From NCBI GenBank assembly GCA_045530815.1, contig JAZSCU010000024.1:65-64064 (forward strand): 64,000 bases of DNA, in the 5' to 3' direction. The DNA is from Candidatus Nanosyncoccus sp. (GTDB lineage: Bacteria; Patescibacteriota; Saccharimonadia; Saccharimonadales; Saccharimonadaceae). This document shows positions 1,421 through 45,335 of the stretch, piece by piece (the stretch's first letter is position 1; every line of letters starts with the position of its first letter). Position numbers and translations under genes: made by a program. The notes under the pieces were generated by a model. That model was given only the letters and a program-made list of their open reading frames with translations. It was not told the DNA's origin and searched no databases.

Positions 1421-1527
1421 TAAAACTGCCCGATAAAAATTACAACAGTCACGGGCGAGTAGCCGGTACTGAAATACCGGGACGAGCCCGCCTGAGCTGT
1501 TGTAATTTTTATGCGGCGCAAGTTTTA
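1421..1527. repeat. Rod-shaped imperfect palindrome between convergent genes (probably also a bidirectional terminator)
   Basis: Perfect 14-bp stem AAAAATTACAACAG (1435-1448)/CTGTTGTAATTTTT (1497-1510); inner CCGGTA/TACCGG and CGGGC/GCCCG; outer TAAAACT/AGTTTTA. Confidence 0.8.
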
Positions 1528-1546
1528 GCGTTAAAAAAATTTATTA

Positions 1547-2005
1547 TTAATTAACCTTGCTTATTATCAATTTTCTTTCACGCCCTTCCCCCTCCGAGTG
1601 TGTTTCGATATCTGAATAATCCACCGCCACCTTATGTACGATCCTTCTATCAGCCGCATTAAGATTTATTTCCATTGGTTCTCCGGTGCGTCGCACTTTC
1701 TCAATCCACCCCTCCGCTTTTTCGGTGATTCTATCTGCACGTTGTTTTTTATAGTTTGCTACATCAACATTTACTCGTGTCACCTCTGCCTCTTTTGAGA
1801 CTAGCGCCATTGATACAATATGTTGCAAAGCTCTAAGGTTGTCCGCATTTCGTCCAATCAAAAGTGAATTCAAAGATGTTGATGGTACTGATAATTGAAT
1901 TACCTCGTCGTCAATCGTCGAAGTCACTGCCACATTAATTCCAAAAAAACTCAGCAGGTCTTCCAAATATTTTTCGGCAAACCTAATTGATTCATCTTTA
2001 TTCAT
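1547..2005 (-). CDS. jag: Jag/KhpB RNA-binding protein (KH + R3H), short form
   Basis: LLIGRNADNLRALQH KH motif, RRIVH R3H motif; follows yidC. Confidence 0.88.
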   Translation of the reverse strand: MNKDESIRFAEKYLEDLLSFFGINVAVTSTIDDEVIQLSVPSTSLNSLLIGRNADNLRALQHIVSMALVSKEAEVTRVNVDVANYKKQRADRITEKAEGWIEKVRRTGEPMEINLNAADRRIVHKVAVDYSDIETHSEGEGRERKLIISKVN

Positions 2006-2009
2006 ATTA

Positions 2010-3119
2010 TTATCTCCTTTTCTTTTTATTATCTTTTGCGGAGATACGAGTTATTTTTGTTCCTGTTTTTTTATTTTTTACCACCTCAGCTTCTTGAATC
2101 TTATTAAGTTCCTTCAAAACCGCCTTATCAGTCATCGCATCAATCTCCGAATCAACCTTCTTTAATACAATTCTCTGCTGAATAACTGTGATAATATTAC
2201 TTAAGAAATAATAAAATGCCAATGCCCCGTTAAGGTTAAACATGATAAAGAACATCATGAGTGGCATCATAAACGACATCTGCCCAGTCGCAAACCCTGC
2301 AACCTCGGAATCATCAATCTCTTTACCATCTTTAGCATCCTTAATAAGCTCACGGAATTTCTTTTTCTTCTCGGATTTTCCAGACGGCATCTGCTGCTTG
2401 GTTGCAAAGTACTGTACTACCGAAGCCATAATCGCACACATTAATATAAACAATGCACTCCAAGAAAATCTGCTAGAAAATACTTCACTAGCCTTTACAT
2501 CTAACCTTATCACTCCAAATAACATAGGATAAAAATCATATTTTGTTTTTTCTTCTGCCGGAATATCTTCATTCGTAAGATCAGCTAAATATATTTTTTG
2601 TTTCTCTTCTAAATTTCTAATCTCCGATCCTTCATAAGCAACAATTTCGTATGCTCGGTTTGTTAAATTATCTGTCGGCATCGGTGTAGCAATTACCCTA
2701 ATTGCTGAAAAAATTGCAATAAAGATAGGAAGTTGTATAATTAAAGTAATAATAGAAGCAAATGGTTTTACATTATATCTCTTATAGAGATCCATTGTTT
2801 GTAGAGATTCTAATTGTTTGTTTCCTTTGCAATTTTTCTTAATCTGCGTCAATTCTGGCTGTAATTTTCGCATTAATTTAGTTTGATTTAATTGTCTCTT
2901 AGTAAGAGGCCACATACATAGTTTTACTAGTATTGTAAATATAATAATAGCAAGACCAAAATCATGTACGAGATTAAATATTACAAACAAAATATTTACA
3001 ATCGGGCGCACAATAATCATATCAATAAAATTAAATGGGCTCCCTGTCGCAATTGAACCAGCCACAAAAATAGCTAAAATTCCAAGATATATATATTTTT
3101 TCACACTCTTTTTATCCAT
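2010..3119 (-). CDS. yidC: Membrane protein insertase YidC/Oxa1
   Basis: FGLAIIIFTILVKLCMWPL, LQPEL, QLPIF, LAFYYFLSNII..IQQ; rnpA-yidC-jag order. Confidence 0.93.
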   Translation of the reverse strand: MDKKSVKKYIYLGILAIFVAGSIATGSPFNFIDMIIVRPIVNILFVIFNLVHDFGLAIIIFTILVKLCMWPLTKRQLNQTKLMRKLQPELTQIKKNCKGNKQLESLQTMDLYKRYNVKPFASIITLIIQLPIFIAIFSAIRVIATPMPTDNLTNRAYEIVAYEGSEIRNLEEKQKIYLADLTNEDIPAEEKTKYDFYPMLFGVIRLDVKASEVFSSRFSWSALFILMCAIMASVVQYFATKQQMPSGKSEKKKKFRELIKDAKDGKEIDDSEVAGFATGQMSFMMPLMMFFIMFNLNGALAFYYFLSNIITVIQQRIVLKKVDSEIDAMTDKAVLKELNKIQEAEVVKNKKTGTKITRISAKDNKKKRR

Positions 3120-3168
3120 TCATCTAATTATACCACACCAAATATATAACTCCAAACACCTACTCTTT

Positions 3169-3510
3169 TTAAGATATTTGACTTTCCTTTACTAATTTAC
3201 CTACCATCTTTGTAAGCTCAGTAAAATCCATCTTCATCACGTCCTTAGAATAAATAACAAAAATATAATCTGTTTTTTTAGGGATACTATCAATATTAAG
3301 CCTCAGTATTTCATAAACTCTTCTTCTGATTCGATTTCTCCCTACTGCAGATTTTTCAACTTTTTTTGACACCACCACTGCCATCCGTGTAAAACCTTTA
3401 TTATTCGGTGTAAAAACAAGTGACATCTTCGAAGCCCGAATTGTCTTCCCTTTTTGATACACATATCTCACGCCCCCTCGTGAATGAAACCGATATTTTT
3501 TACTAAGCAC
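3169..3510 (-). CDS. rnpA: Ribonuclease P protein component
   Basis: [22 protein letters not shown] motif; GTG start overlaps the rpmH end. Confidence 0.95.
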
Positions 3511-18495: not shown

Positions 18496-20313
18496 ATGAT
18501 ACTTAGGATTCGCTCTAGCGAGCAAAGCTCTGTAAATAAGAAGCTTTTTGCTCTCCCATTAATCGTGGGCGTAGCTGGGATTGCCGCCGTTAGTAGTTCT
18601 GGCGCAGTGAGTGCTGCTAGTCTCACAGATAACCTAGAAATTAGCCCAGCTTACCAAAAATACATGGCAGACAAAAATTCAGGGCTTGGAGATAAGTGGG
18701 TCTTGATCCCAAATAAATATAATTTTAAACCAGGTGTAGCAGAGGGCCGTGGCAACGGAACAGAATTGCCAAGTTCTTATAATTTAATTGAGGCCGGTTA
18801 TAAAACACCACAAAAAAATCAGGGCGGAGATGGAGATTGTTGGGCATATGCAACTACCACAGCAATGGAATCTTACATGAAAAAGAATATGGGTGTTTCG
18901 ATTGAGTTTTCGCCAAAACAACTAGACTATATTGTTACTCCTAGCACCGAATACGGGACATTCTTGTCTCAAAAGTATGGCGCAAATAGAGAAATCGGTA
19001 CTGCCGGTAGCTTTATTTTAGCGAGCATAGGCCTAAGAAGTGATTATGTGTTAGACCGCGAAGATGTCTTTTTTGCCAGAATGAAAGCTAATGATTCAGA
19101 ATTAGCTAATTACCAATCTTTTAAACAATATAATGATGTTCATACAATTTTGGCTCCAGTTTCTAATTTTAAGGCCTATACTAAACCAATGTCTAGGGAC
19201 CAGATTCTTGGCGACAAAGCAGAATATCTGGTTGATGGTTTTGAATGGATAAATAAAAATGATCCAGACGCCGTGGCCAAAATCAAAGAAAAGGTCTACA
19301 CCAAAGGAGCGATGTATGTAGGAACATTTGCCCCAGAAACCGAAAACTGTTGGGACGAAAATTCCGACACGATCATTGATCGCGATGTAAATACCTGCGG
19401 AAGTGAAAACGGCCATGCTATGGCGATTGTTGGTTGGGATGATAATCATTCATATAAGAAACCAGATGGCACAACGGGGACCGGGGCCTTTATAGTACAA
19501 AATTCCTACGGGCAGGATAGTCTCTTTAGTGATTATGGTATTAACTCTGCCGATGATTACATAGAGTTTTTGCGAGAAGGTGGCGCCCTGGATAATATAT
19601 CACAAGGAGTAATCCAGCAAATACACGACGCAATTGCGCCAGTAATTGAAAACTGGGATGCCGACGAAACTATCTACCTAGCCTACGATTTTGAAAAAGG
19701 AAATAACGGAACTATCGAATTTGCGGCTATCACCAGTATGGTCAAAAATGATTTTGATAAAGTATATGATATGACGCAGGCAACAACAGAAGCTAAAGAC
19801 GGAACTTTCCTAAATTTCAAAATGAAAGGCCAAGGTGAGCAAGATTTAACAGCGGTCGGCCTTGATTTACTAGCTGCTCAATCGAGAAGTATTAATTTTA
19901 CCATAGGTGTGGACAGCAATAATGATGGTATCAGCGAATATGATCAGCCACTTACGTTTGGGGCAGCTGAAGCAGGTAGAAGAGTAGCTAAATTAGATAG
20001 ACCAATCCATGTGTCTGGAGATTTCACTCTTATGGTATCTGCAGAAGGATATGGATTAACAGCTGACAATGACGGCACTATATCAGCATTAGCCTATACA
20101 GGGGGTCCAGCGGCATCTCCAGATACTATTCCGGTTCCAAAAACCGGCAGCGATATTACCGTGCCAAATACCGGTCTCTCTACAAATGATGACAATGGTG
20201 TTAAATTTGGCGGTATAGTAGCAACCCTAGTAGGGATCTTAACCATCGTCGCAACAGCGATAGCATTCAAAAACCGCCATCGTTTACACAAAATCAAATT
20301 TGACAAAAATTAA
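18496..20313 (+). CDS. Secreted papain-like (C1) cysteine peptidase with C-terminal sorting-like signal
   Basis: Signal peptide; KNQGGDGDCWAY, GHAMAIVGWDD, VQNSYG (Gln/Cys/His/Asn); VPKTG and VPNTG + TM + basic tail. Confidence 0.88.
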   Translation: MILRIRSSEQSSVNKKLFALPLIVGVAGIAAVSSSGAVSAASLTDNLEISPAYQKYMADKNSGLGDKWVLIPNKYNFKPGVAEGRGNGTELPSSYNLIEAGYKTPQKNQGGDGDCWAYATTTAMESYMKKNMGVSIEFSPKQLDYIVTPSTEYGTFLSQKYGANREIGTAGSFILASIGLRSDYVLDREDVFFARMKANDSELANYQSFKQYNDVHTILAPVSNFKAYTKPMSRDQILGDKAEYLVDGFEWINKNDPDAVAKIKEKVYTKGAMYVGTFAPETENCWDENSDTIIDRDVNTCGSENGHAMAIVGWDDNHSYKKPDGTTGTGAFIVQNSYGQDSLFSDYGINSADDYIEFLREGGALDNISQGVIQQIHDAIAPVIENWDADETIYLAYDFEKGNNGTIEFAAITSMVKNDFDKVYDMTQATTEAKDGTFLNFKMKGQGEQDLTAVGLDLLAAQSRSINFTIGVDSNNDGISEYDQPLTFGAAEAGRRVAKLDRPIHVSGDFTLMVSAEGYGLTADNDGTISALAYTGGPAASPDTIPVPKTGSDITVPNTGLSTNDDNGVKFGGIVATLVGILTIVATAIAFKNRHRLHKIKFDKN

Positions 20314-20430: not shown

Positions 20431-23148
20431 ATGAAATTCGCAAGTAGTTATGAACCGGGGGAATATGAAACTGACATTTATGCCGCTTGGGAAGCAGCTG
20501 GTGTTTTTAACCCTAACATTCCTACTGTCCCTGTTGATGTCGATAGCGACGGCCACGATGATCGAGAAGAAAAATCAAAATGCTTTTCTATTGTTATGCC
20601 GCCGCCAAACGCTAATGGTGATTTACATATCGGCCATGGTTTAACTGTAGCTCTTGAAGATTCCCTTACCCGTTATTACCGTCTAAAAGGCGCCTCCTCC
20701 TGGTATATTCCGGGCGCTGATCATGCCGGGTTTGAAACCTGGGTAGTTTACGAAAGAGAGCTCGAAAAACACGGCCATACTCGCTTCGAGTTTGATCGCA
20801 ATGAACTTTATGCTAGGGTCTGGGATTTTGTTGCAGAGCAACGTGGTAATATGGAACTCCAACTCCGCGCCTTGGGTGCTTCCTGTGCTTGGGACGATCT
20901 TACCTTTACTCTTGACGAAAACGTCATCGACCGCGTTTATACCACCTTTGAAAAAATGTGGAACGATGGCCTTATTTACAGAGGTAAAAAACTCGTGAAC
21001 TTCTGCCCCAAACACCAAACCGCCTTCGCTGATATCGAGGTTGAACATAAAGACGAAAAAGGTACTCTCTGGGAAATCGCATATGATGACATTATCGTAT
21101 CCACTACAAGACCCGAAACTCTTTTTGGCGACACTGCCGTTGCTGTCAATCCCGAAGATGAGAGGTACAAAGATCGCATCGGCAAAACAGTTCATCTTCC
21201 TCTAACCGATCGCGAAATTCCTATTATTGCTGACGAGCATGCTGATCCCGAGTACGGCACCGGCGCAGTCAAAATCACCCCTGCCCACGATTTTGACGAT
21301 TTTGAAGTGGGCGAGCGCCACAATCTAGAACAAATTCAGGTCATTCAAGAAGACGGCAAAATGATCAATGTTCCCGAAAAATATAACGGTCTTTCTACCG
21401 CCGAATGCCGCAAACAGGTTCTAAAGGATTTGAAAGAACAAGGTCTATTAAAAGGTGAGAAAAAAATCGTTCACTCTGTTGCTCATTGTTATAAATGTGA
21501 TACAGTACTAGAACCCATGCTAAAAGAGCAATGGTTTGTAGATGTCGAAAAACTTGCAAAGACAGCAATCGCGCACCTCGAAGCCAACGAAATACAATTT
21601 TATCCAGAAAATAAGCAAAAAGTCCTAATTAACTATCTAAATAACCTAAGAGATTGGAATATCTCTCGCCAAATTCCTTGGGGTATCGCTATCCCAATGT
21701 TTAAAAAAGCAAATGACGATGCGACAGACGAGCCAGATTGGATTTTTGATCGTCGCACCAACCTAAAAGAAATCGAAAAGAATGGTGTTAAGTATATACG
21801 AGACGAAGATACTTTTGACACTTGGTTTTCGAGTAGTCACTGGCCTATCGTCTGTACTGACTGGTCCGAGGATCACCACACCCCATATTATCCATTGAAT
21901 GTCATGGAAACCGGCGCCGACATTCTCTTTGCTTGGGTTGCCCGTATGATTATGATGGGGCTTTATGTTACAGATGAAGTACCGTTTAAGGAAGTATATC
22001 TTCATGGGCTCGTCCTCGATGAACACGGCAAAAAAATGAGCAAAAGCAAAGGCAACGTTATCAACCCTATGGACCTTGTTGCAAAATACGGTTCCGATGC
22101 GTTTCGTCTCGGTATCTTAAGGGGCCGCTCCGCCGGCATGAATCAAGCCTTTTCCGAAAACTCTGTTATTTCTGGTCGCAACCTCTGTAACAAACTCTGG
22201 AACATCTCCCGCCTCATCCAATCCCTCGTCGATGAAGAGGGCAGTAGTAGCGAATTTGAAAATAGTGCTACTCGAGGGCTTCCGGAGGTTACGACCGAGG
22301 ATGAGGGCGCGAGCCCCGTAACGAGGGGCGCGGGCGACCCGTCCCGAGAGAGCACTATTTCAAATTCGCCATATACAACTCTCAACATGGGCGAAGATTG
22401 GATCTGTCGCGAGATCAACAATTGTCTGTCACAGGTTGAAGACGACATCAAAACCTACCGTTTTGCCGAAGCAGTCGAAACATTGTACCAAACTATTTGG
22501 GATAAATATGCCGACTGGTTCCTAGAGAGTCAAAAAATTTTCCAGAATAAGGAGCTACTGGAGCGTACTCTAGAAACACTTTTGATTGCTCTTCACCCCT
22601 TTGCTCCTTTTGTTACTGAAACTATTTGGCAAAACCTCAGCTGGACCGAAGGCTTCATTATTACCGCTAAATGGCCCGAAAAACTAAAATATGACCCTAT
22701 TTCAGCCGAAAACTTTGAAAACATAAGAACTATCGTTTCTGAGGTTAGAGGCACCCTACAGGCCCTTCCAGGCACCAATAACGCGAAAAAATACACCTTG
22801 TTGTACGACAATGACAGCCTCGTAGAGGATAATTTACTACTTATCAAGACTCTGACAAAGGTCCCTACGATAAATCCTCTCAGTGGCGCCCCTAGAGGTC
22901 TCCGCCTCGCCTTGGCAAATCACGAGCTCTATTTAGATGTTCCTGCCGAAGTTGTAGCCGAATATAAGGAAACACTTACCGACAAAATTCTCTCTGTTGG
23001 GCGCGAGCTAGACGCCTTAAATCTCAGAATGCAAAATCCAAATTATGTCGAAAGAGCCCCTGCTCACCTCGTCAAAGAAACCAAAGATCAGATCAAGGAA
23101 AAAGAATCTCTCATCGATCGCCTAAAACAACAACTAGAATTAATTTAA
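20431..23148 (+). CDS. valS: Valine--tRNA ligase carrying a 40-aa palindrome-encoded insertion
   Basis: PPPNANGDLHIGH, TTRPETL.GDTAVAVNPEDERY, WNISRQ, DTWFSS, KMSKSKGN, C-terminal coiled arm. Confidence 0.97.
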   Translation: MKFASSYEPGEYETDIYAAWEAAGVFNPNIPTVPVDVDSDGHDDREEKSKCFSIVMPPPNANGDLHIGHGLTVALEDSLTRYYRLKGASSWYIPGADHAGFETWVVYERELEKHGHTRFEFDRNELYARVWDFVAEQRGNMELQLRALGASCAWDDLTFTLDENVIDRVYTTFEKMWNDGLIYRGKKLVNFCPKHQTAFADIEVEHKDEKGTLWEIAYDDIIVSTTRPETLFGDTAVAVNPEDERYKDRIGKTVHLPLTDREIPIIADEHADPEYGTGAVKITPAHDFDDFEVGERHNLEQIQVIQEDGKMINVPEKYNGLSTAECRKQVLKDLKEQGLLKGEKKIVHSVAHCYKCDTVLEPMLKEQWFVDVEKLAKTAIAHLEANEIQFYPENKQKVLINYLNNLRDWNISRQIPWGIAIPMFKKANDDATDEPDWIFDRRTNLKEIEKNGVKYIRDEDTFDTWFSSSHWPIVCTDWSEDHHTPYYPLNVMETGADILFAWVARMIMMGLYVTDEVPFKEVYLHGLVLDEHGKKMSKSKGNVINPMDLVAKYGSDAFRLGILRGRSAGMNQAFSENSVISGRNLCNKLWNISRLIQSLVDEEGSSSEFENSATRGLPEVTTEDEGASPVTRGAGDPSRESTISNSPYTTLNMGEDWICREINNCLSQVEDDIKTYRFAEAVETLYQTIWDKYADWFLESQKIFQNKELLERTLETLLIALHPFAPFVTETIWQNLSWTEGFIITAKWPEKLKYDPISAENFENIRTIVSEVRGTLQALPGTNNAKKYTLLYDNDSLVEDNLLLIKTLTKVPTINPLSGAPRGLRLALANHELYLDVPAEVVAEYKETLTDKILSVGRELDALNLRMQNPNYVERAPAHLVKETKDQIKEKESLIDRLKQQLELI
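22250..22369. repeat. 120-bp palindromic element inserted in frame in valS
   Basis: Arms GCGAATTTGAAAATAGTGCT / AGCACTATTTCAAATTCGC (19 bp, one bulged A); GC-rich core with GCCCC/GGGGC hairpin. Confidence 0.88.
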
Positions 23149-23690: not shown

Positions 23691-24410
23691 TCAACCTGCT
23701 TCATACTCCTCATCGCTAATATATGTTCCGCGCAAGTCACTGAACTCCCCTGCGTCGATTTGTCTCCAGTCCCCGGGGCCGCCTTCGTAGTAGGCTCGCA
23801 CGATATTAACTTGGATGATTATGCATCCTTGTTTCTCATCGTACTGTGGTATATCAGCAAGAATATATTGCTCTACGAGCTCAATTACCTCCTTAACACC
23901 GGCCCGGAACCAGAACCCGGAACAGTCTGAGTCATCAACCCATCCATCATCCGAATTGACGATAAAGTCGTCCTCTAGTTCGTCGTCCTGGATACCGTCA
24001 AGATACATAGCGATTTCATCCTCCAAAGTTTCCTTGTCGATCTTTGTAAAGATCCTCAGAGTCGACTCGACACCTTCCTGCATAGGAATGCGCCCCTCCG
24101 TAATACCTTTACGGAGCTCAGTCAATTCATCCCACCATTTCTGGATGATCTCGCAGATCGCCTGGACGTCACCGCTACTATAAGCTTCATTTGTTTTTAT
24201 AATAGTTACTTCTCCTTCCTTAACATCGATATTGATCCCTTTGTTTACATTTTCAAATGCGTATTTCATAGTTCCTTTTCCTCCTTCGTTTTTTACTTCA
24301 CTATTATTGTTTACGACTTCCTTATTAATATTGTTATTCATTGCATTCTCTCCTTTTCTGTTGTTCATCGTGATTTCCATGTTACCTTTTGCTTCTGTAT
24401 TAGTGTTCAT
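23691..24410 (-). CDS. Hypothetical acidic protein with repeated in-frame SD-ATG starts
   Basis: 239-aa ORF, AGGAGG SD, consensus promoter upstream, hairpin near 23570-23602 downstream. Confidence 0.7.
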   Translation of the reverse strand: MNTNTEAKGNMEITMNNRKGENAMNNNINKEVVNNNSEVKNEGGKGTMKYAFENVNKGINIDVKEGEVTIIKTNEAYSSGDVQAICEIIQKWWDELTELRKGITEGRIPMQEGVESTLRIFTKIDKETLEDEIAMYLDGIQDDELEDDFIVNSDDGWVDDSDCSGFWFRAGVKEVIELVEQYILADIPQYDEKQGCIIIQVNIVRAYYEGGPGDWRQIDAGEFSDLRGTYISDEEYEAG

Positions 24411-24745: not shown

Positions 24746-27700
24746 TTAGAAATTTCCTCCTAGCATTAATCTAAGATAGTCTTCTTCCGCGATTCGTCGG
24801 AGCTCTTCTTGGTAAGCACTTTCCCCACCTCTATTACGCGCCTCTGTTAGGCGTCTTTGAATTCTATCTTGCCTTTCCTGCCATGCTCTATATCCCGCCA
24901 AACTTCCAGGGAAACGTTCTTCTATACTATCTATCCCAATTGCTTCATCAGGGAAGTTTCGTTGCATATAATCACTAAATCCTACCCGACCGCGCTCGCC
25001 TGAACCATAGGTTCTAAGGAGTAACGCCTTCTTGTCGCCATCTCCTAAATACAACATGGCATTTCTAATAGCCTTATCTTTACCCAATTCTTCGTAATCC
25101 TGTATATCAACATGTGGGACTCGGGCAATTCGCTGATCATTATTTCGGATTGCATCGAGTTTGGAATAGAGGAATAGGTCTGTAAAATCTTCGTCTTTAT
25201 CTAGGCGCATCACATACATGGCGCTTTCATTATTGAAGCTCTCCATGATAACGCACTGTTTACCGCGGAAATTAAATTTAAAACCAATATATGAGTTTTG
25301 ATTATCGATATTAATATTGGCGAATGGATCATCTGGGTCATAGTCCTCAACCGATTCGCCGGAGAAGCCATCCATAAACCAATCAACCGAGTCTTCTCCT
25401 TCTGGATTATCAAAAGCCCCAGGTATATTGTTTTTGATCCAAAGATACCACTCATTCAACGCCATCACCTTCCTCAAACCAAAATCTTCAGGGGCTCCTT
25501 CGCCCTCGTATGCAGGAATTTCAGGTTTTGGTCTAGGAGGAGTAACACGAGAAGTGTAAGATTCATCAGAAAACGTACCTTCTACCGGCTCTAGACCATA
25601 CCCCTTAATTTTCTCTACCAGTTCTTTCTTATAACGATTAATCAATCTCTTGACGTCATCGTGTGAAAGTGACCTACGAGTCATGTGTGCTAGACCCTCA
25701 TCCAAAGCTTCAGCTTCCTCAGCTGCCTTTCTAGCTTCCTCTCGTTTCTTCTGTATTACATAATCCTTATAAGCTTCGTTGTTGTTTCTAAAACTGCCTA
25801 TCTTATTCTTTAATCCTCGTGGCGTATCTTCATCCGCCCATACACTATGTAGCATAAAATCAAATTTATCTGGATTAGTGACAAAAACGTTTTCGAAATA
25901 CCATTCAGCAGCCGAGCTTTTTTCACCTTTTGTGGCCTGCAAGACACGCATAAACCCATCAAACGCCTTATTGAAGACCTCAGGATCGCTAAAGTCAAGT
26001 CCTATCTCATCTTTATATTGCTTATAGAAGTCAGTTTCAAATATCTTCAGAAAATTATTATCTGGGTCCGAATAAGATGGATCTGTTATCCCAGTAGCCA
26101 AGCACTCGAGAAGAGCACTGCGGGCTGACTCCATCTTACCAGTAAATTCTACCTCTCTATCTGGATACAACATCTTAAGGACGTCGGCCGGAGGTAAGAA
26201 TTCTTCATAAGCGGCAAGCTCTTCAGGTACTTTTATAAGATCTGTAGAGGACCCAAAGGTCCATTTAACTTTCTCTCTATTCATCATCTCTTCAAGTAAT
26301 TCTTGTCGTCTGTCCTCATTAGCCCTATACCCAATGAGAGTACGTCCCAGATCAAAATTAGCTCCTTCTACTGCAGCTTTCTTGCGTTCCTCTATGGCGG
26401 AGACAAGTTCAGGATTGTCTTTTTCGGCCTCTGCGATAGTAGCTAGCATTTCACGTCGTTTTTCTTCTGCTGCGCTTGACACATCATCTGACAAATATCT
26501 AATTTCACCATTAATGTTTCTAACCCCAAAACGTGAACGCTCCCGGTCGAAGACCAAGCCATTTTCCGATGGAGCATCCATCATTTCAGCGACCAACTCT
26601 TTAAGAGCAAAGACTTCTGGGATGACGTTATTTTCATCTTCTTTATAACCGTTTGCTAGGATTTGCCTTCTTAGGCTTTGGTCATTAACGTCTAATCCTA
26701 GTTCTTGAATTTTTTCGACGATCTGTTCTCGGCTCAAATCACCAGCCTTAAAGAAGAGAGTACCCTCTTTAACACCTTTTGCAACCAAAGATTCTAATAC
26801 GAATTTTTCTTTTTCAGGCGTTAGTTCTTCAACCGTTTCCTGTAGTTCGCCACTTAAAAGTTCGGTCTGAGCACGATTAAGGATTGCTTGAGCTACTATA
26901 GGCGTTTCGTATGTATATTCAAAATTATATCTATGCCTATAAGAGTTCCAGCCACTATGCTTATTTTTAACTCTGAGCTCAGTACTTAGCGAACCAGCTA
27001 AACCTTCAGCTAATTCTTCTTTGCTAGGAGCGTCCATAGAGCCCTGCTCCATTTTGCGTTGGCGAGCTTCCCTGTAAGCGTCCTCCGCTGTAACGTCACC
27101 TTTTCTTAATGCTTCTTGTCTTTTCCCGAGATATTCAACTACTAAGCGCGGTATATCTTCTTTCATCCTTTCCATTCTGTATTTGGTGAACTTAGTATCA
27201 GGGAACATTTCTTGAGTAATTTTTTTAATCTCCTCAGGCGTTACAAACTTTGCTACCGCCTCGACACGTGCCTCATAAGCATCTTTTTCCTTACGCTCTT
27301 CTTCCTCACGTGCTCGTTTTTGTTCTTCTCTTTCTAACCTTGATTGCTTATCTTGCACATCTTCATAGTGCCTTGGCCTTCTCGTTTTTTCTCCGTTCTT
27401 TTGCCAATCTTTATATGCTGGTGTAGGTGCCCATACGTGTACTTTGTCATCATCCGGATCACGCATCAGTTTATAATCTTCCTTTTCGAAAGTTTCTGCG
27501 TCAAGCGGAGCACCCAATTCTTCAGCCTCTTTAAACGTATCTTCATGCTCTTTCCAGAATGGGTCAAGCTCACTCTTTTTTTCATCGTCAGCAGCTATAC
27601 CCACTGACCCCAACTTCCCTGCTAAACGGCTTTCATCTTCCATTTTTGCATCTTCAGCAGCTAAATCCGTTAGCCCTTGCAACTCCGCTAAACGCCTTTC

Positions 27701-27973
27701 ATAATCTTCTTGTGACTCACCATCTAGCTGAGGGTAGGTTTCTTCGCTAATGGTGCTATCATCTGTTGCCCCACGAGGCTCTTCTGCGAGATTGTCGAAC
27801 CCTCTCTCGATAACTTTGGCCTGCTGGTCCTCCGGCAAATCTTGCCCCAAATAAACAGTTTCACCCTTATCATTTGTTGTCGAGTGTGATGCCATTTGTT
27901 CTGCAATTGCTTGCCATTCTTTGCCGTTGCCCTGTTCGTCGCCTTGTGTATTTTTGTGATCTTCAGTGTTCAT
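24746..27973 (-). CDS. Large Glu/Asp/Lys-rich hypothetical protein (1075 aa)
   Basis: Long uninterrupted ORF with AAAGGAG SD; no motif recognised. Confidence 0.8.
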   Translation of the reverse strand: MNTEDHKNTQGDEQGNGKEWQAIAEQMASHSTTNDKGETVYLGQDLPEDQQAKVIERGFDNLAEEPRGATDDSTISEETYPQLDGESQEDYERRLAELQGLTDLAAEDAKMEDESRLAGKLGSVGIAADDEKKSELDPFWKEHEDTFKEAEELGAPLDAETFEKEDYKLMRDPDDDKVHVWAPTPAYKDWQKNGEKTRRPRHYEDVQDKQSRLEREEQKRAREEEERKEKDAYEARVEAVAKFVTPEEIKKITQEMFPDTKFTKYRMERMKEDIPRLVVEYLGKRQEALRKGDVTAEDAYREARQRKMEQGSMDAPSKEELAEGLAGSLSTELRVKNKHSGWNSYRHRYNFEYTYETPIVAQAILNRAQTELLSGELQETVEELTPEKEKFVLESLVAKGVKEGTLFFKAGDLSREQIVEKIQELGLDVNDQSLRRQILANGYKEDENNVIPEVFALKELVAEMMDAPSENGLVFDRERSRFGVRNINGEIRYLSDDVSSAAEEKRREMLATIAEAEKDNPELVSAIEERKKAAVEGANFDLGRTLIGYRANEDRRQELLEEMMNREKVKWTFGSSTDLIKVPEELAAYEEFLPPADVLKMLYPDREVEFTGKMESARSALLECLATGITDPSYSDPDNNFLKIFETDFYKQYKDEIGLDFSDPEVFNKAFDGFMRVLQATKGEKSSAAEWYFENVFVTNPDKFDFMLHSVWADEDTPRGLKNKIGSFRNNNEAYKDYVIQKKREEARKAAEEAEALDEGLAHMTRRSLSHDDVKRLINRYKKELVEKIKGYGLEPVEGTFSDESYTSRVTPPRPKPEIPAYEGEGAPEDFGLRKVMALNEWYLWIKNNIPGAFDNPEGEDSVDWFMDGFSGESVEDYDPDDPFANINIDNQNSYIGFKFNFRGKQCVIMESFNNESAMYVMRLDKDEDFTDLFLYSKLDAIRNNDQRIARVPHVDIQDYEELGKDKAIRNAMLYLGDGDKKALLLRTYGSGERGRVGFSDYMQRNFPDEAIGIDSIEERFPGSLAGYRAWQERQDRIQRRLTEARNRGGESAYQEELRRIAEEDYLRLMLGGNF

Positions 27974-30776: not shown

Positions 30777-30812
30777 ACCTTAATTGTATCATAACCAAGT
30801 TTGACTTATTCC

Positions 30813-30985
30813 CTAACCCCAAATTTTTATTTGCATTGAGCAAACCCGAGAAAGTTTTTATGGGATTTAGGAAAATTTAACTCGCGAACCGTGAAGACAG
30901 CCGTGAGACGAGCAAATTGTCCGTTAAAAATCCCATAAAAATTTTACCGGCGTGAAGCGAAGCGCAAATAAAAATTAGGGTTTAG
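30813..30985. repeat. Rod-shaped palindromic element (about 173 bp), homolog of 45161-45335
   Basis: Stems AATTTTTATTTGC/GCAAATAAAAATT and TTTTTATGGGATTT/AAATCCCATAAAAA; loop motifs shared with the 45161 copy. Confidence 0.88.
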
Positions 30986-31003
30986 TGATTAACCCAAACA
31001 TGC

Positions 31004-31045
31004 TTATGCACAACAAATCCACAAGCTTTTTCCACAAAAACCACA
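31004..31045 (+). promoter_or_regulatory. Cluster of co-oriented DnaA-box-like 9-mers
   Basis: TTATGCACA 31004, AAATCCACA 31015, TTTTCCACA 31028, AAAACCACA 31037. Confidence 0.4.
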
Positions 31046-40283: not shown

Positions 40284-41453
40284 CTAGTCAATCTCCACCC
40301 TTGGATAGATATTAAGAGAATATGGATCCGTTGGCTCTACCCCAGATTTTATTTCAAAGAAAGCTGCCGCCGCCACCATCGCACCATTGTCTCCAGATAA
40401 TTTTAGCTCAGGAAAGTATACTTTTACATTTTTATTAAATTTTTCTATCATTTTCTTTCGCAACTCTTTGTTAGCGCTTACTCCTCCTGCTACTACAATT
40501 GACTTAGTATCAGGGTATTTTTCTAGTGCTAACTTCATTTTTTCGCACAAAATCTCTATCGCGGTTTTTTGGAATGAAGCCGCAAAATCACAAACTTGCT
40601 TCTTTGATAGTAATTCTTTTAGCTGATGGGAAGGATAAGAAATTGGCACCCCCACCTCTTTTTGCACTGCTCGAAGCACCGCTGTTTTTAGTCCCGAAAA
40701 CGAAAAATCTAGCCCTGGGATTTTTGGGTGCGGGAGCCGATACATATTTGCGTCACCAGAGAGATCATAGTTGCCACTAGCTGCAGCTGCAATCGATGGT
40801 CCTCCCGGATACGGCAATCCTAGAATTTTTGCTACTTTGTCAAAACACTCCCCCACCGCATCATCCCTTGTCGTCCCCACAATCTTAAACTGGTTATGTG
40901 CCGGCATATAAAGTATTTGGGTATGCCCACCCGAAACTACCAGTGCCAAAATCGGAAATTTCGGACTACAATTATTCATGTCCAGCTCGAGGGGATTCGG
41001 AGTCTGGCAAGGCGAGGACGGGCGTCGATCGCCCATGCCGATGGGTCGACCGGACGCGGCTCGAGAGTGAGCATGAATATTGTCTCCGGCTAACCAGTTT
41101 GCATAAACATGTGATTTAAGATGATGCACCGCATAAAGAGGCTTATTGTATAAAATTGCCAAAGTTCTCGCCGTCAAAGTACCAATTAAAAGGGAACCAA
41201 GAAGCCCCGGTGCATGCGTCACCGCAATTGCATCAATATCGTTCCACGAACAGCTAGCATCCTCTAGGGCCTTTTTTACGACGGGCATCATCACCTCTAG
41301 GTGGCTTCTCGCTGCCACCTCTGGTATTACCCCACCATATTCTGCAAAAATATCAATTTGCGACACCACAACATTAGACAAAATTTTTACTCCATCCTCT
41401 ACTACCGAGGCGGCCGTCTCGTCACAACTAGTCTCAATCCCCAATATTTTCAT
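40284..41453 (-). CDS. tsaD: tRNA N6-threonylcarbamoyltransferase TsaD with a palindrome-encoded insertion of about 42 aa
   Basis: ILGIETSCDET, GGVIPEVAARSH, HHLKSH, VSGGHT, DDAVGECFDKVA..LGLPYPGGP, FSFSGLKT, GDNGAMVA. Confidence 0.96.
   Translation of the reverse strand: MKILGIETSCDETAASVVEDGVKILSNVVVSQIDIFAEYGGVIPEVAARSHLEVMMPVVKKALEDASCSWNDIDAIAVTHAPGLLGSLLIGTLTARTLAILYNKPLYAVHHLKSHVYANWLAGDNIHAHSRAASGRPIGMGDRRPSSPCQTPNPLELDMNNCSPKFPILALVVSGGHTQILYMPAHNQFKIVGTTRDDAVGECFDKVAKILGLPYPGGPSIAAAASGNYDLSGDANMYRLPHPKIPGLDFSFSGLKTAVLRAVQKEVGVPISYPSHQLKELLSKKQVCDFAASFQKTAIEILCEKMKLALEKYPDTKSIVVAGGVSANKELRKKMIEKFNKNVKVYFPELKLSGDNGAMVAAAAFFEIKSGVEPTDPYSLNIYPRVEID
40962..41088. repeat. Palindromic element (about 126 bp) inserted in frame in tsaD
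   Basis: Arms CGGACTACAATTATTCATG / CATGAATATTGTCTCCG; inner CTCGAG..CTCGAG and CCCAT/ATGGG; core resembles the valS element. Confidence 0.82.
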
Positions 41454-42450: not shown

Positions 42451-42686
42451 AAGCAAAAGTCTTCCGTCCTCCTTGCTCGAAATATCATGAGCAAACTCCC
42501 TATATTCTCTCGTTTCGTCGTCCGGTCGAACCTACGGTTCTCATCCTACCAGTTTTTATTATAGAAAATACCCGAACAAATGCTCGGGTATTTTCTATGG
42601 CTAGGCTGGCAGGATGACGGCTTCGCTTCGCTACGCCTAGACCTCGCTTCGCTCGGTGCGAACCTACGGTTCTCATCCTACCAGCT
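42451..42686 (-). repeat. tRNA-Gln-linked repeat array (two structured units + hairpin)
   Basis: 18-bp copy of the tRNA 3' end TGGCTAGGCTGGCAGGAT at 42598; 26-bp direct repeat CGAACCTACGGTTCTCATCCTACCAG at 42527 and 42659. Confidence 0.88.
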
Positions 42687-42691
42687 TAAGT

Positions 42692-42739
42692 ATATGAATT
42701 AAAATAAGACTCCTTCGGAGTCTTCTTCTAATTCATATG
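42692..42739 (-). terminator. Hairpin directly after tRNA-Gln
   Basis: ATATGAATT..AAGACTCC-TTCG-GAGTCTT..AATTCATAT. Confidence 0.7.
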
Positions 42740-42812
42740 GCTAGGCTGGCAGGATTCGAACCTGCGAATGACGGGACCAAAACCCGTTGCCTTACCACTT
42801 GGCGACAGCCTA
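42738..42812 (-). tRNA. tRNA-Gln(TTG)
   Basis: TAGGCTG/CAGCCTA acceptor, ACGGG-TTTTGGT-CCCGT, TTCGAAT, GCCA. Confidence 0.96.
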
Positions 42813-45160: not shown

Positions 45161-45335
45161 TCTGAACTCTGCTATTTATTTACATTGAGCGAGCCCGAGA
45201 AGATTTTTCTAAATTTTAGGAAATTAGCTCGTGCGAACCGCATAGGCAGACGTGAGACACGAGTAATTTCCGTTAAAAAATTTAGAAAAATCCTTCTCGG
45301 CGCGAAACGAAGCGCAAATAAATAGTAGAGTTAGA
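45161..45335. repeat. Rod-shaped palindromic element (about 175 bp), homolog of 30813-30985
   Basis: Stems AACTCTGCTATTTATTT/AAATAAATAGTAGAGTT and GATTTTTCTAAATTTT/AAAATTTAGAAAAATC. Confidence 0.88.

Follow-up and report, generated by a model that had tools for sequence, protein, structure and literature searches.

The tsaD gene of the 64-kb stretch of DNA analysed here (the window) is interrupted by a GC-rich palindrome that is very probably a copy of a non-autonomous, hairpin-forming mobile DNA specific to Nanosyncoccus-like Saccharibacteria from ruminant guts, strand-polarised by a replication-linked asymmetry. We show that the orientation of the copies is tied to the chromosome strand and is independent of the direction of the host gene. 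The repeat family appears to be previously undescribed, and literature searches returned no description of such elements in Saccharibacteria. In-frame palindromes of this kind are known from Rickettsia; the chromosome-strand polarity appears to be new.

The tsaD insert and its relative in valS

A preliminary description of the window had proposed a palindromic, in-frame insertion in tsaD, and our analysis bears this out. Both ends are found exactly, at 40962-40980 (CGGACTACAATTATTCATG) and 41072-41088 (CATGAATATTGTCTCCG), and the 42-residue peptide attributed to the insert is read without a stop codon, as YANWL-AGDNIHAHSRAASGRPIGMGDRRPSSPCQTPNPLELDMNNCS-PKFPILAL (Table 1). The GC content of the insert is 0.62-0.70, against 0.40 for the 64-kb window. 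The longest exact inverted repeat within it is 8 nt (TATTCATG/CATGAATA), and the tsaD copy taken by itself folds only modestly better than shuffled sequences (z-score of -1.7 to -2.3), so that significance is carried by the comparison of family members. The insert was found in four independent sheep-gut metagenome assemblies with a few SNPs, and is therefore not an assembly artefact.

Table 1. The two element copies of the window, their host genes and the parts of the tsaD copy (forward-strand positions).
Feature	Position	Strand	Description
tsaD	40284-41453	(-)	tRNA t6A37 threonylcarbamoyltransferase subunit, 389 aa; essential; host gene; identified by ORF, TIGR03723 and PDB matches
Complete palindromic element (tsaD copy)	40962-41088	(-)	127 nt; reference strand = minus = tsaD sense; HMM built from the other loci only, E 2e-9
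P1 5' arm	41060-41088	(-)	AT-rich, fast-evolving part 41072-41088; closing motif TCTCGAG at 41060-41066
Hairpin P2	41026-41052	(-)	base covaries among copies; apical hairpin CCCATCGGCATGGG at 41032-41045
Hairpin P3	40996-41018	(-)	TCCTCGCCTTGCCAGACTCCGAA
P1 3' arm	40962-40992	(-)	CCCCTCGAG ... CATGAATAATTGTAGTCCG
valS	20431-23148	(+)	valine-tRNA ligase, carrying the second copy; identified by NCBIfam NF004349 (885 bits) and translation
valS copy	22250-22369	(-), model sense; antisense to valS	120 nt, 40 codons; arms GCGAATTTGAAAATAGTGCT/AGCACTATTTCAAATTCGC

The NCBIfam model TIGR03723 matches the window tsaD with 372 bits, the match being broken into two stretches at the insert, and matches to TsaD structures in the PDB are interrupted at residues 121/162. 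Residues 122-161 stand where Salmonella TsaD (3ZET) has 2 residues. The net gain over an 18-nt empty loop is 114 nt (38 codons), the 127-nt palindrome taking in a few host-like bases at either end, and the insert adds about 38-40 residues to the protein. In an AlphaFold model of moderate overall quality (mean pLDDT 69), residues 121-161 have pLDDT values below 50 and no secondary structure, and lie between a helix and a strand. With low confidence values there and only 2 equivalent residues in 3ZET, the insert position is that of a surface loop compatible with the fold. From the open frame, the insert is predicted to be translated as part of TsaD, which would yield junction peptides such as YANWLAGDNIHAHSR.

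The second copy, in valS, has 19-nt arms and folds with a z-score of -5.9. A covariance model of the family matches it at 22263-22359(-) with 85.2 bits, and matches the tsaD copy at 40978-41076(-) with 85.5 bits, the stem of the latter extending to 40962/41088. The kinship of the two inserts had been proposed from shared words. When they are aligned directly the result depends on stringency: a stringent local alignment is not significant, and a permissive global/local alignment of the cores is, in the +/+ orientation only (z ~5, reached by 0/2000 shuffles). Homology is settled by intermediates in other genomes, here designated by locus number (L). To the valS insert, the tsaD inserts of L032, L026 and L023 show identities of 94.8% (over 96 nt), 89% and 73% (over 84 nt, E 1e-6), respectively; the window tsaD insert in turn shares 79-81% identity with its counterparts in L001 and L023 (81% for L023). 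A subfamily of about 95% identity thus occurs in valS in the window and in tsaD in L032. Moreover, an HMM built from the copies of other genomes only recovers exactly two sites in the window, with E values of 2e-15 and 2e-9, both on the minus strand. Run with filters off, the covariance model revealed no third family copy in the 64 kb. The GC-rich peaks at 23723, 33844, 42599 and 52541 were considered as palindromic elements and rejected, and a long complementarity of the valS flanks outside the element was dismissed as alignment noise.

The window also holds repeats of other types. An AT-rich, intergenic, palindromic repeat is present at 30840-30956 and 45190-45306 (in wider limits, 30790-31008 and 45165-45332); its two copies share the motif CCCGAGAA...GCGAACCG...AGACAGCCGTGAGAC...CGGCG, can be aligned well to one another and show no relation to the tsaD/valS element. 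The genes for tRNA-Gln (42738-42812, minus) and tRNA-Tyr (11276-11360) are each followed, immediately at the 3' end, by an inverted partial self-copy, which gives long hairpins at 42599-42762 and 11336-11422 with arms of 42-46 nt that are 80-83% complementary; a further tRNA-Gln-like fragment lies at 42599-42617. These inverted copies could be terminators or the scar of an integrative element. Two long open reading frames have little or no annotation: that at 24746-27973 (minus, 1075 aa) has no NCBIfam or Pfam match, and that at 18496-20313 (plus, 605 aa) has just a weak papain-like match in these collections.

Fold and reading frames of the family

Family members are 112-133 nt long and share a fold in which a long, variable, AT-rich outer stem (P1, ~20 bp) closes a GC-rich, conserved three-way junction. 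P1 evolves fast yet remains paired, the apex of P2 (CCCGTCGYYACGGG, of which CCCATCGGCATGGG is the version in the tsaD copy) is nearly invariant, and the short P3 completes the junction. The closing motif common to the aligned copies is TCTCGGG...CCCTCGAG. RNAalifold predicted 29 pairs from 12 sequences, of which 21 show compensatory changes. Over 82 copies, in an alignment that was fitted to the covariance model and so leans toward the structure, 88.9% of the cells are paired, compared to 62.9% after shuffling and 41-51% when the partners are slid, and both-sided changes are seen in 27 of the 29 pairs. The arms are loosely homologous among copies residing in different genes and therefore belong to the element, not to its target. 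For the same reason we rejected the idea that the outer stems are an inverted duplication of the target flank. A count of G-U against A-C oppositions over the copies, aimed at choosing the strand that folds, gave no clear strand preference.

The preliminary description had suggested that the family is open on both strands, which proved correct: two frames of one strand and three of the other are used, five in all. A single motif is read as PVATG (...RPVATGG...) or as RPSSRG, depending on the species. Conservation therefore operates at the nucleotide level, not at that of the protein. A protein search with the element-encoded peptide, its sensitivity limited by the word index, gave no match. 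Against Rfam, the window gave only tRNAs at the gathering threshold, and neither insert was matched at E values up to 10.

In some copies the loops of P2 (and P3) contain an extra small hairpin, GCGTCCCAAGGGGCG (L021, 3069-3216; L034, 10374-10539; L049, 1293-1425). This suggests a mini-element nesting in the hairpin loops.

Host genes, orthologous sites and turnover

We found 82 family matches in 1.28 Mb of sequence around tsaD from 80 species which, with the 2 window copies, make 84; an exact-pattern scan of metagenome contigs added 65 further loci. The copies are mostly intragenic: 79 of the 84 lie in ORFs of at least 150 aa, and 56 of 67 metagenome copies lie in long ORFs. In the tsaD-centred loci the hosts include tsaD (three loops), valS (several loops), a P-type ATPase, a FemX-like protein and TlyA. 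The metagenome hosts group into 23 clusters of proteins, among them LepA, PolA, PcrA, UvrB, UvrC, LigA, TruB, Tgt, Der and QueA, and at least 15 different host families can be named. Intragenic copies keep the reading frame and contain no stop codon. They are found in poorly conserved loops, and the peptide that they encode is hydrophilic and predicted to be disordered.

The nearest homologues are Candidatus Nanosyncoccus and other Saccharibacteria MAGs from ruminant guts, among which close relatives have TsaD proteins of 340 to 461 aa. This spread can be followed at the orthologous site. Over 80 loci, the segment from YANW to xFPLLAL measures 18-30 nt in about 35 species, and this is the empty site that an insertion predicts, whereas it measures 93-234 nt in about 45. 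Many orthologues have a loop of 6 codons. The segment is a stop-free multiple of 3 in 79/79 readable loci, L055 being left out of the count because one of its flanks was not located. Some loops are intermediate and contain just half an element, or the stems alone; presence/absence and partial-deletion scars are seen at the orthologous sites of L010, L033, L035, L057 and L059. The tsaD loop is also a hot spot: depending on the species, it is filled by one or another of at least three palindrome families that are unrelated to one another, and the three occur in two further tsaD loops as well.

The other two families are likewise in-frame palindromes, unrelated to the first. Family 2 has the core GCGCTCAAGGGCGCTCGCCCAAGCTTAC, and family 3 is about 190 nt long with conserved arms, AACCTGTCTTTTCTTCAGC. 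Palindromes of these types, of about 90 nt and about 190 nt, occupy the same tsaD loop elsewhere. Loci with other families in the tsaD loop are L006, L009, L015, L017, L043, L048, L063, L070, L007, L022, L036 and L080, and further loci listed for families 2 and 3 are L008, L012-L014, L019, L028, L038, L056, L075 and L077.

The element core is 90-95% conserved between species whose host proteins are 70-80% identical. One PolA loop holds copies in both gene-relative orientations in different species, and arm-bearing copies have reached the same loops independently, which shows that insertion was repeated. Since the L138 copy in PolA has the same arms as the valS copy of the window, there is no support for an inversion of the core in situ with the arms staying fixed. 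In metagenome contig L106 (~1470-3225), a chimeric ORF joins the N-terminus of TsaD to the C-terminus of LepA at precisely the position of the element. The probable cause is misassembly across repeat copies that hardly differ, which implies that near-identical copies were present in two genes of one population.

Copies thus land in coding sequence, in poorly conserved loops, and would be read through as a peptide which the host protein presumably tolerates. Since one stretch of DNA serves in five different frames across genes and species, the peptide itself probably has no function. Turnover is fast: sites are empty, filled, scarred, occupied by nested copies or taken by other families. Searches for the machinery of mobility gave no candidate. 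The window and the 1.7 Mb of loci showed no transposase, no reverse transcriptase and no autonomous parent, and we found no left and right ends separated by an ORF, the mark of an autonomous parent. Viral contigs, phage records and plasmids contained no family match. Neither a conserved flanking target nor a target-site duplication is evident beside the element ends. Derivation from a DDE transposon as a MITE was rejected, since the arms vary between copies and the flanks show no target-site duplication.

By analogy, the Rickettsia palindromic elements (RPEs) come closest among known kinds; they are selfish palindromes that lie in frame in housekeeping genes, in a genome that has been reduced (Ogata et al. 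2000, 2002, via PMC10969869), and the RPE-like character noted earlier is supported by 112-133-nt repeats that are in frame and stop-free in at least 15 host families. As far as RPEs are described in that account, both are 100-150 bp palindromic repeats of a host-dependent bacterium with a reduced genome, form several families with no known transposase, and lie in frame in unrelated housekeeping genes, where they add a peptide to tolerated loops. The present elements differ by their host phylum (Saccharibacteria, CPR), by a GC-rich three-way-junction core with variable AT-rich arms, and by the use of five frames on both strands, while each RPE family is described as encoding one conserved peptide. 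A strict orientation by chromosome strand such as that described below is not among the RPE properties reported there. The likeness to the RPE families (RPE-1 to RPE-10) is thus one of kind only, judged from their description; homology is unlikely, phylum and composition being different.

Other hairpin-based systems are more distant. Integron attC sites are comparable in being recombination sites that a folded single strand defines, and not a sequence; however, attC sites flank cassettes beside an integrase, whereas here single copies are scattered in genes with no integrase. Chromosomal attC arrays show an orientation bias relative to replication that limits their folding. REP/REPIN sequences with their RAYT are also hairpin repeats in which pairing is maintained, and REP dimers fold into ~100-nt hairpins (PMC3733652). 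Some CGTC REP families correspond to RPE-4 and RPE-6, and CGTC REPs have no associated transposase (PMC3733652). REPs, however, are 20-40 bp long, mostly extragenic, and have an unpaired GTAG or CGTC head and conserved stems (PMC3733652), whereas the present element is intragenic, with variable stems, a conserved apex and CGTC in the loop.

Orientation on the chromosome and its possible origin

In 83 of the 84 copies of the window and tsaD-centred loci, it is the G-rich strand of the chromosome that bears the element's reference strand; many of these copies are orthologous and hence not independent, a bias that the metagenome and per-cluster tests below correct in part. Relative to the host genes the same set shows 30 sense and 49 antisense copies. 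With every locus oriented to read tsaD from the plus strand, 77/82 matches are on plus. The proportion is 77/78 in loci of positive skew (the exception is L041), and in the seven loci with negative GC skew on the tsaD strand, 4/4 matches are on minus. In two of these inverted-skew loci, L029 and L049, the tsaD-site copy is itself inverted. Similarly, the valS copies of L038 and L063, where valS and tsaD are on the same strand, are sense; elsewhere they are antisense. Both window copies have their reference strand on the G-rich minus strand. Thus tsaD, on the minus strand, reads the element sense and valS, on the plus strand, reads it antisense because the orientation is fixed to the chromosome strand. 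The opposite gene-relative orientation of the two inserts, already pointed out in the preliminary description, is therefore not incidental but follows from this rule.

The same holds for the independent metagenome sample, in which 32 of 35 copies agree with the local skew where |skew| is at least 0.1 (p 4e-7), and 45 of 57 do so overall. Concordance climbs with skew magnitude (7/13, 6/9, 19/21 and 13/14), and host genes carry 28 sense and 29 antisense copies. At the level of host-gene clusters, 19 agree with the skew and 2 do not. The strand rule also holds for families 2 and 3 (30/30 and 17/17, respectively). The polarity is not a product of mutational skew, since the reference strand of the element is C-rich (skew -0.13) and opposes the skew of its surroundings.

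The direction of replication relative to this polarity is read from GC skew, which is -0.05 to -0.16 throughout the window. Coding bases lie to 65% (window) and ~74% (loci) on the C-rich strand. The gene-rich strand of bacterial chromosomes is usually the G-rich one, the opposite of the pattern in the window and the loci. The G-rich strand bears 6 of the 8 tRNA genes of the window, and rRNA and marker-gene motifs for fixing the leading strand gave too few matches. For other CPR lineages, unusual skew has been reported (PMC7143001).

The polarity requires a strand-asymmetric DNA process, for which replication is the obvious candidate. Two routes can be envisaged: the element may insert at the fork as a single strand in folded form, in the manner of IS200/IS605-type or retro-type elements, or there may be preferential loss of those copies whose stabler hairpin strand lies on the lagging-strand template. 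The first, in which polarity is set as the folded strand enters fork-exposed DNA, is a serious candidate that stops somewhat short of being probable. The enzyme that drives it would be a HUH/Y1-type transposase acting in trans, as in IS200/IS605-like PATEs, or else a reverse transcriptase for which nascent lagging strands provide the primer. Entry at the fork would explain why the bias is strong relative to the strand and absent relative to the gene, and why one permissive site has been entered independently in both gene-relative orientations by arm-bearing copies; a rule common to three unrelated families is expected if the fork is their common entry point, and the conserved hairpin with its invariant loop could be a protein recognition site. 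The elements also resemble IS200/IS605-derived PATEs in being small and hairpin-bearing, in having no evident target duplication and in an orientation tied to the inferred direction of replication (83/84 and 32/35 copies concordant with GC skew). However, IS200/IS605 elements have separate subterminal LE and RE hairpins and a fixed tetra- or pentanucleotide as target, on the 3' side of which they insert, whereas here a single closing stem makes one whole-element hairpin enclosing two unlike inner hairpins, and no conserved target tetranucleotide adjoins the ends. No Y1 (HUH) TnpA was seen within the 64 kb and the loci, and the lack of a transposase or reverse transcriptase in the 1.7 Mb and of any match in viral contigs, phages and plasmids also weighs against this route.

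It is possible, though in our judgement rather unlikely, that polarity arises later, through survivorship. Copies would insert either way, and those with the stabler strand on the lagging-strand template would be deleted fast by slipped mispairing or hairpin cleavage. In 1991, Trinh and Sinden reportedly described an asymmetric-palindrome effect of this type, with orientation-dependent deletion. The G-rich antisense strand of the element folds more stably than its complement in 75-77 of 81 copies. It is located on the C-rich strand of the chromosome, and if skew follows its usual rule this is the leading-strand template, seldom exposed as a single strand. Scars with stems or halves alone are common at the tsaD site, and a general structural filter would act on all three families alike. 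Yet the energy gap between the strands is small, ~7% or about 2.6 kcal/mol of 35 with DNA parameters, and so weak a filter would need to yield a bias of about 95%. Moreover, the assignment of leading and lagging strands rests on the usual skew rule, and skew in CPR can be atypical (PMC7143001).

We consider it improbable that the copies are instead polar chromosomal sites useful to the host (in priming, fork handling or segregation), kept by selection and lodged in genes for want of intergenic space. The conservation of the core beyond that of the host proteins, the strict polarity and the base-pair covariation would all suit such a role. However, there are just 2 copies in the 64-kb window, close species differ in presence or absence, sites are scarred or filled by unrelated families in the same loops, and the chimeric assembly implies near-identical young copies. 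Selfish turnover therefore fits better than a fixed function. A structured RNA in the mRNA (intron-like or regulatory) or a selected protein loop, to which the covariation and the in-frame position of all intragenic copies might point, is very improbable, since 49/79 and 29/57 copies are antisense to their host and so yield no single RNA from the mRNAs, the frame is always kept, although a spliced element could do without this, there is no match in Rfam, and the peptide varies with frame and strand and is predicted to be disordered. A self-splicing intron or cis-acting mRNA structure was rejected outright on the inconstant sense orientation and the universally kept frame.

Mobile hairpin DNA polarised by replication thus remains our preferred explanation. 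More tentatively, the three unrelated palindrome families may together represent a replication-polarised class of hairpins that enters, or survives in, essential genes in one strand orientation only. If true, this would reveal either an undescribed pathway of single-strand transposition without a recognisable transposase or a natural, genome-wide case of orientation-dependent hairpin deletion, and the orientation of the copies would inherently mark the direction in which CPR genomes are replicated. The strand rule could itself serve to separate the two mechanisms, insertion at the fork and hairpin deletion. These repeats inflate and diversify housekeeping proteins, split HMM matches and produce chimeric metagenome assemblies. 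Protein-coding palindromes had been presented as a peculiarity of Rickettsia; the occurrence of several families in an unrelated, ultra-small episymbiont suggests that in-frame selfish DNA recurs where non-coding space is nearly absent.
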